DNA from: a candidate division WOR-3 bacterium | GTDB lineage: Bacteria; Hydrothermota; Tepidihabitantia; Tepidihabitantales; JAOUPE01 | Assembly (NCBI GenBank): GCA_039801565.1 | Contig: JBDRUX010000001.1 | Span: 1-64,000, forward strand | Reading direction: 5' to 3' | Length of the DNA stretch: 64,000 nt | Shown here: in pieces, positions 12,395 to 46,042 of the stretch | How the letters are laid out: each line of letters starts with the position of its first letter | Position numbering within the stretch: the stretch's first letter is position 1 | Translations under genes and position numbers: made by a program | The notes under the pieces: model-generated | Databases searched by the model: none | The model's input: only the letters and a program-made list of their open reading frames with translations | Told to the model about the DNA's origin: nothing

Positions 12395-13021
12395 ATGAAG
12401 GATTTTATCTATCCAAAAGCAAATGAAGCAAACCGCATAATCCGGCTTATTGCTTCGGTGATGACAGAGGACCCTTTAAATATTTATTTCTTGCCGGATG
12501 CAGAACAGCGAAAAAAGTTATTATTTTATCTCTATCAACCCATCATCCGGTCTGGTATCCAAAACCGCTACCTATTTATTACTTCTAAAAAGTGTGAAGG
12601 GACAGCGCTCTGGCTGCCACCTCAAGTTAAAGAGATTAATTTTTTTCATCAATTGTTGTACGGCGGGCTAGCGGTTTTTACGAAAATTGGACTAAAGGCA
12701 ATCCACCGAATGATAAATTACCAAAAGTTTTGTCGAATTTTGCGAGAACGGTACGCTCCGTTCCCACATTGGTATTTAATGTTGATTGCAGTTGCAAAAG
12801 AATGGCAAGGTAAAGGATTTGCGTCCCAATTAGTTAAACCGATATTACACCAAGCCGATTTAGAAAAGAGGTATTGTTACTTAGAGACCCAAAACGAAGA
12901 AAATCTGCCAATCTATGAACATTTCGGTTTTGAGGTAGTAGCGGAGAGAGCAATACCTGACACCAGCATAAGGCATTGGTGCTTACTCCGAAACCCAAAT
13001 TCCGCTAATGCGGTAGAATAG
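12395..13021 (+). CDS. GNAT family N-acetyltransferase
   Basis: HWYLMLIAV..QGKGFAS, YLETQNEENLPIYEHFGF. Confidence 0.88.
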   Translation: MKDFIYPKANEANRIIRLIASVMTEDPLNIYFLPDAEQRKKLLFYLYQPIIRSGIQNRYLFITSKKCEGTALWLPPQVKEINFFHQLLYGGLAVFTKIGLKAIHRMINYQKFCRILRERYAPFPHWYLMLIAVAKEWQGKGFASQLVKPILHQADLEKRYCYLETQNEENLPIYEHFGFEVVAERAIPDTSIRHWCLLRNPNSANAVE

Positions 13022-18990: not shown

Positions 18991-21156
18991 ATGGTCAATT
19001 TGATAACTTTCTTCCTTTTTCTGTTTACGCCTGTTAAAGCAATGTCCAAAAGCGATTTTAAGCCGATTCATTACCAAAAGGTTTATCGAAGTAAAGATTG
19101 GGATTCACTCAATTCACGGTTTATTGGTAACTGGCCTTTTGGTGAAAGTTGGACATTAACTTTGGATACAGCAAGAAATATTGTTTTTCTTGGTTCTGGT
19201 GGGGGCGTTCTGGCAATAGATATTACAAATCCTTCCGACCTCCGTAAATTAGGAGAAATTAGAACTGGAGGAAGGGTTCGCGAGATGGTTTTAAAAGATA
19301 GTATTCTTTGCATCGCTTGCACAAATCAAGGGGTCGAAATCTGGAATGTGGCGAATGTTTCACAGCCGACTTTCTTAAGTTCTATTCTAGGTCCTTCGAA
19401 AGAAGTGGCTGTCAAAGATTCCTTTGCTTATATTGGAGGTAATAATTTAAGAATTTACAATATACGCAACCCTCAAAGACCGGTTGAAGTAAATTCTTAT
19501 GGAAATTGGTGGGAAATTGTTGATTTGACGGTTTCGGACTCTTTTGCCTATCTTACTGGGTACGGAATTGATTCGTCGGGTCTGTTAATCATCAGTATTC
19601 AAAACCCGACAAACCTCTATGTAGTAGGATTTTTAGATTTAGACAGCACCTTAGGAAGTATTGCAATATTAAATAATTATGCTTACATTACAGGTTATGG
19701 TTTACGCATCATTGATATTTCTAATCCAGCAAATCCTTATGAAGTTGGGTCGTGTATCACTCCGGTTTGCGGAACTGCTGCGGTTGCAATTTCCGATTCA
19801 TTTGCTTATGTTGCTAATGGCACACGGGGGCTGACCATAATTAATGTACAAAATCCAACAAATCCATTTGTGGTAGCAAATTGCACAACCACAACTTGGA
19901 GTGTTATGGTAGATATTGCAGTCTTAGATTCCTTCGCTTATTTGGCTGATGAGAAGAGTAAACGCGGGTTATGGGTTGTAAATGTCTCTAATCCTTTAAA
20001 CCCATTCGAAGCTGGTTTTTATACTGTGCCTGGTTGGTCATTTACTGTGGTGCTTGAAGAGAATTATGCCTATCTTGTTGGCTGGGAGGATGGTCTGCGA
20101 ATTCTCAATATCGAAAATCCTTCTTATCCTTATGAGGTTGGTTCATTTGCCACTGAACATGGCGCACAAGGTATAGCAATTAGAGATACTTTGGCTTATC
20201 TCTGCGATTTTGGCAAAGGATTAAGAATTCTTAATATAAGTGACCGCTCAAGACCTGCTGAATTGGGATTCTGTCCAACACCTGGTGCTGCCTGTGCGGT
20301 AGTAATAAAAGGTAATTATGCCTATATTGCGGATGGCACTTATGGCTTGCGAGTCATCAATATTGAAAATCCAACCAATCCTTATGAAGTTGGTTTTTGC
20401 GATACACCTGACTACGCATGGAGTATTGCGATTCAAGACTCTTTTGCCTATATAGCTGATGAAAGAGGTGGACTACGCATAATAAATATTCAAAACCCAG
20501 CCCATCCTTATGAGGTTGGTTCACTTTTGATACCCGATGGACCGGTAGTTGTAGCGGTAAAAGATTCTTATGCCTTTGTTGGTGGCTATGAAGGTGGAAA
20601 TATGAGAATTATCAATGTCGGAAATCCGGCTAATCCTTATGAAATTGGATTTTTTGAGACCTATGGTCCTTGTTTTGGGATTTCTCTTGAATATCCATAT
20701 GCCTATGTCTCGGATTGGTTTTGGGGTTTTTGGATTGCAGAGATAAGTGAACCTTCAAATCCGGTTCGGATGGGCTATTATAGGACACCTAACGCTGCCT
20801 ATGGGTCAGCATCGCGCCCACCTTATGTTTATGTTACAACTGGCTTATGCGGACTACAAATTTACGAAAATCTTCTGTTAGGAGTTGAAGAAAAGAAAAT
20901 CAGCCGTTTAGTGACAAAAGAGTTTGTAATTTATCCCAATCCGGCAAAGTCTGTTCTTGCTATCCGCTTACCGCTTTTGGCTAACCGCCAAAATATAAGA
21001 ATCTTTGATGTTTCAGGAAAGATGATAAAAGAGATTGCCGTTACCGAATCCAATCGCGATAACAATGAAATAAAAATATCGCTGAAAGGAATCAAGCCAG
21101 GAATTTACTTCTTGCAATTTGGCAACCAGACCAAAAAGTTTCTGGTCGTGAAATAA
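18991..21156 (+). CDS. LVIVD-repeat beta-propeller protein with T9SS-type C-terminal sorting domain
   Basis: More than 10 repeats of AYxAD..GLRIINIxNPxNPYEVG; C-terminal IYPNP...IFDVSGKMI...GIYFL...KKFLVVK. Confidence 0.9.
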   Translation: MVNLITFFLFLFTPVKAMSKSDFKPIHYQKVYRSKDWDSLNSRFIGNWPFGESWTLTLDTARNIVFLGSGGGVLAIDITNPSDLRKLGEIRTGGRVREMVLKDSILCIACTNQGVEIWNVANVSQPTFLSSILGPSKEVAVKDSFAYIGGNNLRIYNIRNPQRPVEVNSYGNWWEIVDLTVSDSFAYLTGYGIDSSGLLIISIQNPTNLYVVGFLDLDSTLGSIAILNNYAYITGYGLRIIDISNPANPYEVGSCITPVCGTAAVAISDSFAYVANGTRGLTIINVQNPTNPFVVANCTTTTWSVMVDIAVLDSFAYLADEKSKRGLWVVNVSNPLNPFEAGFYTVPGWSFTVVLEENYAYLVGWEDGLRILNIENPSYPYEVGSFATEHGAQGIAIRDTLAYLCDFGKGLRILNISDRSRPAELGFCPTPGAACAVVIKGNYAYIADGTYGLRVINIENPTNPYEVGFCDTPDYAWSIAIQDSFAYIADERGGLRIINIQNPAHPYEVGSLLIPDGPVVVAVKDSYAFVGGYEGGNMRIINVGNPANPYEIGFFETYGPCFGISLEYPYAYVSDWFWGFWIAEISEPSNPVRMGYYRTPNAAYGSASRPPYVYVTTGLCGLQIYENLLLGVEEKKISRLVTKEFVIYPNPAKSVLAIRLPLLANRQNIRIFDVSGKMIKEIAVTESNRDNNEIKISLKGIKPGIYFLQFGNQTKKFLVVK

Positions 21157-21272
21157 ATTGTAACGGTGCGGTAGCGAAGCGGTGCCGAAGGCACAATTAT
21201 CGCCTAAAGGACTTTTAGCTTGTTTTAAGGAGTCGGATAAATCCAATCGCTATTGTCTTCTACTCCACCTGT

Positions 21273-21485
21273 TTCTTTTCCTAACCTACCTTCGTCTAAG
21301 TCTAACAGCTCGCCTACTAACCAGATTACCAGACCTTTTACTAGCTAACTTACCAGCCGGCTCCCGAGTCAGCTCACCAACCAACTTCAAAGGCACGCTA
21401 CGGAACCAGTCCGTGCCTTACCCCCTACACTGCCCCTGATACTGTATAGGGGGTAGCCGGGGGCTAGCCCAACTCCTACCCTCCC
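21273..21485 (-). repeat. 12-bp-periodic degenerate array with G-rich head, copy 1
   Basis: Consecutive minus-strand 12-mers ctttgaagttgg, ttggtgagctga, ctcgggagccgg, ctggtaagttag, ctagtaaaaggt, ctggtaatctgg, ttagtaggcgag. Confidence 0.8.
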
Positions 21486-21595
21486 TTGGTTCTTTCTTTA
21501 GCAAAATCAAAGTCTTAACGAGTTAGAGCCTAACTTACTTAACACCATCATCAATTTGTAGGTTTTAACTTAAAAACAACAATAGACTGATTCGA

Positions 21596-21625
21596 TGTCA
21601 CGTCGCCAAAATCCTTCCGTCTAAT
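21596..21625 (+). promoter_or_regulatory. Candidate ECF-sigma promoter of the capsid-like gene
   Basis: TGTCAC-N16-CGTCTAAT upstream of the AAGGAGG RBS. Confidence 0.4.
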
Positions 21626-21663
21626 AATAGTGACAAAAATAGTTAAGAGAAAGGAGGTGTATA

Positions 21664-37913: not shown

Positions 37914-38606
37914 ATGGCGAAAAGAATAAAAGAACCGGTTGTGCAATACAATGGTCGAAAATTTCAAAGGATTTGGGTCAAGACCCATATCATTACCGAT
38001 CGAGATGATATTGGTGATGTGGTTGAGCAATATACCAAAGGGGTCTTAAGAAATAATGACATTGTGACAATTGCTGAAAGTGTCGTAGCGATAACCCAAG
38101 GTCGAGCAATCCCCATCAATAAAATCAAACCCGGTCTACTGGCGAAAGTTCTTTGGCGATTTGTCCGCAAAGTTCCTTACGGAATTGGGTTACGCAGTCC
38201 TTGGAGTATGCAGTGCGCAATTGAAGAGGTGGGGGGCTTAAGAATTTTACTGGCTGCTTTCGTCAGTGCTTTTGGTAAATTGCTTGGGCGAAAAGGGGAT
38301 TTCTATAAAATCGCTGGCAAACAAGCAGCAATGATTGATGCTGCGCATACTTCTGGAGTCAAAGAATTTTACGAATGCGTCATTATGGGACCAAAAACAC
38401 CCGAGCTGGTCGCAAAAAGAGTTAGTAAACAAATTAACCACCCGGTTGCGATTGTTGACGCCAATGATATTTCCGGCTGTTGGGTGGTTGGAGCATCCGA
38501 TGGCTTAGATTTGCAGATGATTGAAAAGGTGATGGCAGATAATCCAGCTGGGCAGGGTGACAGTTTAACCCCAATCATCATCATTCGGGAAGTGAAAGAT
38601 GAGTAA
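37914..38606 (+). CDS. Coenzyme F420-0:L-glutamate ligase (CofE)-like protein
   Basis: IAESVVAITQGR, AIVDAND, DNPAGQG..LTPIIII. Confidence 0.7.
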   Translation: MAKRIKEPVVQYNGRKFQRIWVKTHIITDRDDIGDVVEQYTKGVLRNNDIVTIAESVVAITQGRAIPINKIKPGLLAKVLWRFVRKVPYGIGLRSPWSMQCAIEEVGGLRILLAAFVSAFGKLLGRKGDFYKIAGKQAAMIDAAHTSGVKEFYECVIMGPKTPELVAKRVSKQINHPVAIVDANDISGCWVVGASDGLDLQMIEKVMADNPAGQGDSLTPIIIIREVKDE

Positions 38607-45188: not shown

Positions 45189-45569
45189 TTAACCCGTCTC
45201 CGAATCGGATTTGGGCGGTGTTGACAGTTGTCCCATCATCTTTTCATACTTTTGTTTAAAATCAATCGCAGTCGGTTCTTTAAAAAATTCGACTAAGAAG
45301 TACCACCGACTCGAAGCAAATCAAGAATTGTTCGCAAAACGAGATTTTGGATAAATCCATTTTATAGGCGGGCAATAAAACTCCGTCCATGCTTTGATTT
45401 TAATCCTAACCAAGCAGCAACTTCCAGTTGGGTCAAATCAATCTTTTTTTCGTAATGCTTTAAGCTATCCGAATCAGATTTTGAAAGAAAAGAGAAACCC
45501 GGAACTTGTTTCAGGGTCGCCTGCGTCGAACTTTTCTGCCATTTCTTGAGAAAAAACCGGTATCGGCAA
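45189..45569 (-). pseudogene. XRE-family HTH regulator pseudogene
   Basis: Reconstructs to MPIPVFSQEMAEK[insert]LKALRK/KIDLTQLEVAAWLGLKSKHGRSFIARL*NGFIQNLVLRTILDLLRVGGTS/VEFFKEPTAIDFKQKYEKMMGQL; one stop, two frameshifts, one insertion. Confidence 0.75.
45497..45530 (+). repeat. REP-like palindrome
   Basis: acccggaa-cttgt-ttcagggt then cgcctgcgtcgaa; sister copy near 60069. Confidence 0.6.
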
Positions 45570-45654
45570 AACGTTAGCTAAAACTAACACAAAAATCAAG
45601 CCAAAATTTCTTTTAAGTATATGATATTTAAGATGTTATATATAATTTGTCTTT

Positions 45655-45885
45655 GGGTGGGGGTATGGTATAGGGGGTAGCCCCGTAGGCTGCCTCCTGA
45701 GCTAACCCGCAGGTTGCCCGGAAAGTTGCTTCGGAAGTTACTTTTGGAGCTGGTTGGCAGGTAGGCTCAGGAGTGACTTCGTAGGCGACCTCGGAAGCAA
45801 CCCAGTAGGCAACTTGGAAAGCAACCTGGAAGGCAACCTGGTCGTTAGCTCCGCAGGCTACCTGAGAAACGACCCTCTATACTGC
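45655..45885 (+). repeat. 12-bp-periodic degenerate array with G-rich head, copy 2
   Basis: 16 in-phase 12-mers at 45682-45873, e.g. ttcgtaggcgac ctcggaagcaac ccagtaggcaac ttggaaagcaac ctggaaggcaac. Confidence 0.9.
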
Positions 45886-46042
45886 CTCGCTGTTTCACCA
45901 ATCTTAATTCCTGTGTCTTGATCACCGATTTTAAGGATATAAAAATAGTTCAAAATGTTCAAATAGTTTAACTGAGCGAGCAGTAAATCTTGAAATGTTT
46001 CCCAGAAAGTGAAAAACATTGACAACGCTTTAAGTAGGGTTA

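Follow-up and report, generated by a model that had tools for sequence, protein, structure and literature searches.

Why does a degenerate array of 12-nt repeats face a gene for a capsid-like protein in a bacterial chromosome, and could the product of that gene be the reader of the array? The array, copy 1 of two in the 64,000-nt stretch of candidate division WOR-3 DNA analyzed here (hereafter, the window), lies in a 507-nt spacer between a T9SS LVIVD-repeat gene (18991-21156, plus strand) and the 122-aa open reading frame P0001 (21664-22032, plus strand). Along the minus strand, its parts follow in the order conserved box (21503-21519), G-rich head (21485-21419), and body (21392-21255); the letters and coordinates of this copy are as the initial annotation gave them.

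21255..21392, minus strand: body of copy 1, about 11.5 degenerate, G/T-rich 12-nt units of the CTnGGTAAGnTnG type
21419..21485, minus strand: G-rich head of copy 1, delimited by the family-B head alignment, the head HMM, and the repeat search
21449-21458: GGCTACCCCC in the head of copy 1
21461-21470: palindrome GGGCTAGCCC in the head of copy 1
21503..21519, minus strand: conserved box, about 20 nt before the head, GTTAAGACTTTGATTTT in copy 1 and AAGTTATTGATTTT family-wide
21597..21634, plus strand: GTCAC...CCGTCTAATAAT...GTGAC box just upstream of P0001, with similar boxes at the paralogues C12 and C14 and at family-B copy C26
21664..22032, plus strand: P0001, 122 aa, predicted SIRV2-type capsid-fold protein with an N-terminal basic helical arm and a four-helix bundle

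Array families in the genome

The head of copy 1 had been described as followed by 12-nt repeats in phase. This is borne out by autocorrelation, which reaches 0.40-0.43 at lag 12 compared to 0.19-0.34 at lags 6-11 and 13-18; against mononucleotide shuffles, the lag-12 value has P of 0.007-0.016 over the 97 nt originally delimited and is matched in 0 of 2000 shuffles over 141 nt (0.43). Spectral power at period 12, however, does not differ significantly from the shuffles (P 0.08-0.12), and the 12-nt phase of this copy is weak. The inverted repeat reported in the head is present, with 12-nt arms (21419-21430 and 21444-21455) that are 92% complementary and 13 nt apart. The 15-mer GTATAGGGGGTAGCC, said to be identical at 21444 and 45668, indeed matches exactly at both positions and at five further places, seven in total in the 2.31-Mb, 135-contig assembly, for a chance expectation of about 0.004 exact matches by our own arithmetic from length alone; with at most 2 mismatches, there are 83 matches on both strands of the whole assembly. 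Because the two 15-mers in the window are both on the plus strand whereas the elements that contain them are oppositely oriented, the identity reflects a common, near-palindromic building block rather than an aligned position.

The second array of the window belongs to a different setting, with the following features.

45280..45600, minus strand: putative decayed HTH-plus-capsid-fold gene remnant, divergent from copy 2, recognized by eye only (MAEKF..., ...KKIDLTQLEVAAWLG...)
45655..45890, plus strand: array copy 2, family A, head GGGTGGGGGTATGGTATAGGGGGTAGCC followed by about 17 units of 12 nt
45943..45971, plus strand: family-A tail box with the direct repeats AAATAGTTCAA and AAATAGTTTAA, from the repeat search and the family consensus

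Copy 2 carries the strongest 12-nt signal in the window (lag-12 autocorrelation 0.51, power 6.5, 0 of 2000 shuffles); the second-highest period-12 spectral power (3.8) is found at about 38137-38290, inside a coding region. The initial annotation assigned the same consensus to both copies, which is true in a loose sense only, what they have in common being the period and the head motifs. An nhmmer search with copy 2, which defines family A, produced 122 matches, of which 62 score at least 79 bits. Copy 1 is not one of the 122 and falls outside family A; the reciprocal search with copy 1, which defines family B, produced 21 matches, of which only one is a copy-2-type element. Judging from these sequence matches, copies 1 and 2 represent two different families with a common period and common head motifs. 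Altogether, the period-12 dispersed repeats of this genome comprise at least three families, with about 86-90 copies in the 2.31-Mb assembly, many of them at contig ends; the third type is characterized by central GGGCTAGCCC palindromes.

Copy 1 fits the definition of family B, with a match to the head HMM (73.8 bits) followed by a 12-nt periodic body, the spectral power of which is not significant. The head HMM detects 24 copies at 40 bits or more in the genome, and copy 1 is among the lowest-scoring full-length heads. The family consensus consists of the AAGTTATTGATTTT box, a spacer, GGGGCTAGCC(nnnGGCTAGCC)CCTGGCTACCCCCTATACnGTATAGGGGGCnGTATCGGGGGTAGG, and the periodic body. Conservation of the heads, on which the initial annotation had staked its reading of copy 1, is evident from their alignment: the motifs are kept in the 24 copies and in the sister genome G001, the only other genome of the same coded family (82% complete), which contains 23 head matches, strong copies among them, and one weak P0001 match, a free-standing gene. 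Genomes were searched at the DNA level with a sequence-only model, R1. The box that precedes the head occurs 19 times in the genome with at most 1 mismatch, 11 of these in family B, and is oriented into the array; boxes of the copy-1 type also precede arrays in other coded families. This box may be a promoter or a protein-binding site.

The genomic contexts of family B are diverse, with copies often located between convergent genes. Four copies (window 21157-21250; G000:C81, C18, and C5) end against the conserved 3' end of convergent genes for secreted proteins, the abutting part encoding a T9SS sorting domain. Family-A elements are closed by a triple (A/T)GTTCAAA-type box, AAATAGTTCAAAATGTTCAAATAGTTTAA (window 45943-45971; flanks of C5, C7, and C103), which is also present beside some family-B copies. 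Genome G046 has a dispersed repeat of its own, GGGCTATCCCCGGGGCTACCCC, at 9 sites on nine contigs, which differs from the family repeats; there is no capsid-fold gene within 1.5 kb of the two sites examined.

The capsid fold of P0001 and of an HTH-fused regulator

That the gene facing copy 1 is capsid-like, as the initial annotation had proposed, is strongly indicated by profile and structure comparisons. The profile of the P0001 family (23 members) matches the coat proteins of SIRV2 (PDB 3j9x, E 1.5e-6, residues 3-91) and SSRV1 (6wq0, E 4.5e-6). P0001 alone scores 20.3 bits against the Pfam family PF12193 (Sulf_coat_C), for which the cut-off is 25.2; 18 of the 23 family members match this domain (E at most 0.01), and three of the ten that were rescanned exceed the cut-off (L002, 26.6 bits; L004, 28.3; L014, 29.1). 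The AF2 model of P0001 (pLDDT 86) displays the defining architecture of the fold, a predicted N-terminal helical arm and a four-helix bundle. In a Foldseek search with this model, the best 8 of 48,161 structure representatives are all capsid proteins of filamentous archaeal viruses (TM 0.75 to 3j9x), and only such capsid proteins appear at the top of the two fold searches performed. The profile matches and the predicted structure jointly point to genuine homology between P0001 and the capsid proteins of the SIRV2 type found in filamentous viruses of archaea.

This family is present in 60 of the 61 genomes of the order, with up to 31 matches per genome. A profile search retrieved 794 proteins at E of at most 0.001, the named ones coming from 'candidate division WOR-3'; one of the 794 bears an automatic UniRef name that contains the Pfam domain. 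NCBIfam holds no family for P0001, PHROGs offers one unnamed family (E 0.0077), and the best ESM Atlas score is 0.87, with no Pfam family. The neighbors of P0001, namely, the T9SS LVIVD protein, an M3 peptidase, and GAR synthetase, make up ordinary chromosomal surroundings. An Adnaviria virus or provirus setting was rejected given these neighbors, the lack of visible virion genes, and the presence of the family in nearly the entire order.

The GTCAC...CCGTCTAATAAT...GTGAC box is likely to be the promoter or operator of P0001. In the form GTCAC...CCGTCTAATA(A/T)T...GTGA, it is found upstream of P0001 and of the paralogues at G000:C12 and C14, and also beside a gene-less family-B copy (G000:C26, about 12500-12540), suggestive of a past joint duplication of gene and array. 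Long GC-rich 5' leaders, conserved within groups, precede many of the P0001 homologues, in f2 (L011, L014, L017, L019, and L020) as well as at G000:C12 and C14; one example is CTGCGGCAGATTTT...GCCGC, immediately ahead of the ribosome-binding site. These leaders may be cis-regulatory RNAs.

The partner of the copy-2-type arrays is a different protein. An 'XRE repressor' gene diverges from family-A arrays, and one copy looks intact (G000:C63:13143-14114, 324 aa), with the array starting about 75 nt upstream. This protein has an HTH_3 domain at the N-terminus and two stretches that match the P0001 HMM; its C-terminal domain aligns with the P0001 family in hhalign at 97.4% probability (E 1.1e-11). 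With the model of the whole 324-aa fusion as the query, the top 50 Foldseek matches are all HTH and RRNPP-type regulators, the capsid fold not being among these best 50; the fold of the C-terminal domain is recovered with VIA-align and hhalign only. By these alignments, the XRE-type regulator paired with copy-2-type arrays ends in the same capsid fold as P0001. The HTH-fused family comprises 152 proteins at E of at most 0.001. In this genome, truncated or frameshifted HTH-plus-capsid-fold copies are found at G000:C44, C18, C92, C54, C27, and C100, and only C63 looks intact. The remnant next to copy 2 (45280..45600) has no listed match in the homologue search, its intact homologue being the C63 gene. 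Perfect palindromes, AATATTACTGnCAGTAATATT and TTGCATnnnATGCAA, adjoin the starts of HTH-fusion genes (L109, L111, L113, and L114), between gene and array, and are likely operators of the HTH domain.

Gene-array linkage across the order

The comparison set consists of the 61 genomes of the order, which are relatives and not independent samples, with coded family and genus labels. A pair of GGGCTAGCCC units 12 nt apart (GGGCTAGCCCNNGGGCTAGCCC, at most 2 mismatches) has matches in 13 of these genomes. Among the ten f2 sites taken in (the G046 sites were excluded and three further f2 sites left out), eight have a P0001-like gene at a distance of 160-315 nt that points away from the site, and at several f2 loci, the 12-nt periodicity extends beyond the central palindromes as far as the gene promoter. 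No P0001-like gene lies within 1.5 kb of the GGGCTAGCCCNNGGGCTAGCCC sites examined in f5 and f1. In the genome under study, arrays of about 17 units with central palindromes are located approximately 90-170 nt upstream of the P0001-like pseudogenes at C75 and C11 (lag-12 autocorrelation 0.49 and 0.51, respectively); upstream of the paralogues on C12 and C14, which are intact, there is no array. Relative to the gene, the G-rich strand is directed away at copy 1, but toward it on C75 and C11.

The closest orthologues of P0001, in f5, have an AAGTnATTGATTT box and a GGGGCTAG-type head upstream in all five cases, although no significant period-12 signal accompanies this head-like motif. Further upstream of the G005 orthologue, AT-rich sequence is tandemly repeated about every 36 nt (L002 733-890). 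In family B itself, a P0001-type gene adjoins only 1 of the 20 copies examined, copy 1, and such a gene as the general partner of the family in this genome was accordingly rejected; no HTH-fusion remnant lies upstream of any of the 24 family-B head matches, one of which is at a contig end. For the 62 family-A copies, a divergent gene remnant was recognized in 13, and 8 are at a contig end; the remaining 41 have no recognizable remnant.

The HTH-fusion genes show the linkage across lineages. At 12 of 17 loci of full-length homologues, the upstream period-12 power exceeds the 95% shuffle level, with ten of the 12 peaks at -228 to -390; the other two, at -612 and -714, look like neighboring coding sequence. 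The same test on downstream sequence, as a control, was passed by 2 of 18 loci, with 3 ties. Arrays of 15-22 units are visible by eye in seven of the nine fusion loci shown (f3, f4, and f5), for example, in f3, TATTnnnnnTCC repeated 22 times with a GATAGGGGGTGG head. The sequence of the unit varies by lineage (G/T-rich; TATTnnnnnTCC; TAAAAnnnnnnn; AT-rich), and the period stays at 12. Thus, 12-nt arrays lie upstream of capsid-fold genes in four further coded families, with unrelated unit sequences, and the phased repeats are placed beside the promoter of the linked gene in an iteron-like arrangement. By eye, free-standing genes, the products of which are presumed homodimers, seem to go with palindrome-rich arrays, and tandem-domain fusions with direct, asymmetric repeats. 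Full-text searches, with relevance judged by title and abstract among the papers listed, found no description of bacterial relatives of the SIRV2-type capsid fold or of WOR-3 repeats, and as far as such searches reach, the gene-array pairing seems to be undescribed in print.

A proposed docking site and its alternatives

Taken together, these comparisons identify copy 1 as a probable degenerate member of a class of non-coding, 12-nt periodic arrays that are cis partners of SIRV2-type capsid-fold genes across this WOR-3 order. The closest parallel to the period comes from the viruses themselves. In structural reports, the asymmetric unit of SFV1 and PFV2 is given as a dimer of the major capsid protein (MCP) with 12 bp of A-form DNA, and the capsid proteins, homodimers in rudiviruses and heterodimers in lipothrixviruses, wrap the DNA into the A-form (PMC6105669, PMC7189273). 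The 12-bp step per dimer of the Adnaviria MCPs (Rudiviridae, Lipothrixviridae, and Tristromaviridae; SIRV2, SSRV1, AFV1, SFV1, and PFV2) equals the array period here, and the homodimeric and heterodimeric forms are paralleled by the free-standing and tandem-domain proteins; unlike those of the viruses, the genes in question are bacterial and chromosomal, some are fused to an XRE HTH, and they are paired with short arrays rather than with a whole virus genome. Given that the 12-nt arrays adjoin genes with the fold of a coat protein that has a 12-bp footprint, we predict that the capsid-fold protein docks on the duplex DNA of the array, unit by unit in phase, and that docking starts at the palindromic, G-rich head. 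We consider this reading tentative, with a probability of roughly 0.45.

Under the docking model, the partner would be either a free-standing protein of about 120 aa, such as P0001, or an XRE-type HTH regulator with two such helical domains. It is this protein that would occupy the double-stranded array in phase with the repeat, with one dimer, or one pseudo-dimer of tandem domains, on each 12-bp unit. Beginning at the G-rich head of GGGCTAGCCC-type palindromes, conceivably with A-form geometry, it would build a short nucleoprotein filament, which would control the module from its place next to the divergent promoters. Through multiplication in this lineage, the array and its upstream box have reached about 90 copies, most of which, all other examined family-B copies included, have lost the gene. 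A duplex reader is favored over an RNA fold by unit letters that differ entirely from lineage to lineage at a constant period of 12, by the f3, f4, and f5 arrays, whose folding does not surpass that of shuffles (z +2.1 to -2.4), and by the variable strand orientation. Counting against docking, most copies have no partner gene nearby, and, to our knowledge, viral capsid proteins of the SIRV2 fold coat DNA without sequence preference. Also unfavorable to docking are the array-free paralogues on C12 and C14, the f5 orthologues with no significant period, the single weak P0001 match in G001 as opposed to 23 head matches, and the weak periodicity of copy 1.

Two known systems show what such a site could look like. 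In plasmids R1 and pSK41, the ribbon-helix-helix protein ParR coats the centromere-like iterons of parC, which have a period of 10-11 or 20; by analogy, the arrays would be phased short repeats beside the promoter of a gene whose product coats them co-operatively into a helical scaffold and autoregulates. The putative binding here differs in the fold of the protein, in the absence of partition ATPase genes, in the 12-bp period, and in the dozens of dispersed copies. The origin of assembly of tobacco mosaic virus, a single site in an RNA virus, has a periodicity that corresponds to the footprint of the coat subunit, 3 nt; the arrays would likewise combine a period that equals the footprint, 12 bp, with a role in nucleation, albeit in cellular DNA and at many sites.

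Alternatively, the array could have a promoter of its own and give rise to a non-coding RNA, which the adjacent regulator would control or which would serve that regulator as a ligand or sponge. The conserved box about 20-45 nt before the head, oriented into the array, and the strand asymmetry and folding in this lineage both fit transcription: the G/T bias is strand-specific, the G-rich (minus) strand of copy 1 folds with z of -3.05 compared to +0.44 for the plus strand, and the mean fold energy of family A is -103.8 kcal/mol on the G-rich strand and -81.8 kcal/mol on the other. In the family-A consensus, moreover, about 90 conserved nt with -35/-10-like words precede the head. The separate palindromic operator by the start of the fusion gene, between gene and array, is another point in favor, since this would be a possible binding site for the HTH, leaving the array as a candidate for the regulated transcript. 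There is also a precedent in Bartonella henselae, where Brt RNAs, multi-copy non-coding elements of about 200 nt, are paired with the Trp (XRE-family) HTH regulators (PMC5387305); as differences from the arrays, transcription and stable folds are reported for these RNAs, their regulator lies downstream, and they lack a 12-nt period and a capsid-fold domain. Against an RNA function, the heads show no covariation, the pairing register in family A slips by multiples of 12, with no pair common to 40% of the copies, and the orientation of the strand relative to the gene is not constant. A fixed long hairpin for family A was rejected, given that the RNAalifold consensus (-10.5 kcal/mol) contains local helices only. 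Neither the heads nor the arrays of other families display the conserved structure with compensatory changes expected of a structured small RNA; across the window, there is no Rfam match at gathering scores, only chance-level rows (E at most 10) around both copies, and no tRNA or tmRNA was found here. Scans for sigma-70-type promoters and intrinsic terminators at copy 1 returned 0 and 0, with the proviso that the promoters of the phylum may differ. When the preserved period, the lack of folding, and the variable orientation are set against the strand bias, the folding in this lineage, the box, and the operator, docking comes out ahead, and an RNA function appears unlikely.

Still less likely, by the same weighing, is that copy 1 is a decaying copy of a selfish, duplicating repeat with no present function, the period resulting from slippage or gene conversion and the gene having been copied along with the array. 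The count of roughly 86 in 2.3 Mb of assembly, with many of the copies located at contig ends, the diverse contexts, the many broken gene remnants, and, at copy 1 itself, the low-scoring head and weak periodicity are all compatible with such decay. MITEs, REP/BIME, and Correia elements similarly occur in many intergenic copies, have hairpin potential, and break assemblies, all of which applies here too; we know of none among them, however, with a strict internal 12-nt period kept across lineages or with a linked gene for a protein of one fold. The 12-nt period and the gene linkage both persist across five coded families with unrelated units, where neutral decay would have removed them; in 5 of 5 f5 genomes, the P0001 orthologue is preceded by a head-like element. 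At copy 1, the repeat search revealed neither the terminal inverted repeats expected of MITEs nor target duplications; copy 2 is flanked by a direct repeat of 12 nt (D3).

The two remaining readings concern the head and the coding potential. It is most improbable that the inverted repeat of the head functions by itself as a hairpin or cruciform, for example as a terminator or a site of recombination or replication. Its 12-bp arms are real and present in the minimum-energy fold, and the family preserves the runs of C and G in the two arms, but there is no T-run after the hairpin, and RNAalifold yields -3.98 kcal/mol for the heads with 0 compensatory pairs. Paired cells amount to 75.4% for the helix of the initial annotation and 73.8% for an alternative helix, compared to 78.0% and 76.0%, respectively, in shuffles, and without compensatory change, a hairpin under selection was rejected for both. 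The chance that the array is a gene for a small protein built of four-residue repeats is close to nil. One forward frame is stop-free in 16 of 44 family-A copies and translates to (V/L)GxL-type repeats, with the third positions varying most; nevertheless, its pN/pS is 0.63 compared to 0.65-0.94 in the other five frames, the stop count is 6 against 11.0 +/- 3.2 expected (P 0.06, from only 17 copies without indels), 27 of the 44 copies contain indels, and the consensus has, by eye, no start codon. A coding role was rejected on these four counts; in copy 1, there is no open frame of note in the direction of the array.

The central idea of the initial annotation, a capsid-like protein with 12-bp phased sites, is thus better supported than a single window could show; overall, its observation is partly confirmed and its interpretation partly supported. 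What is new is the capsid homology of P0001, the same fold in the XRE partner, and the arrays upstream of such genes in four further coded families. In a review, the capsid protein of adnavirians is described as unique to archaeal filamentous viruses, with no known bacterial connection (PMC10848233). Here, a large bacterial family with this fold is tied to arrays the period of which equals the viral footprint. A bolder proposal, which we regard as doubtful, is that chromosomal relatives of the Adnaviria capsid in WOR-3 build A-form-like filaments on 12-bp arrays, that is, cellular 'origins of assembly', with the fold being either the cellular source or a domesticated descendant of the viral capsid and the approximately 90 arrays serving as dispersed docking sites of a chromatin-like protein. 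Should binding fail, the conserved 12-nt period would still need another reader. Should it hold, these genes would set the origin of a viral capsid in a cellular context and might be the first bacterial example of A-form DNA packaging directed by sequence, and one small protein with a 200-bp array would make a simple in vitro system for the study of filament initiation.
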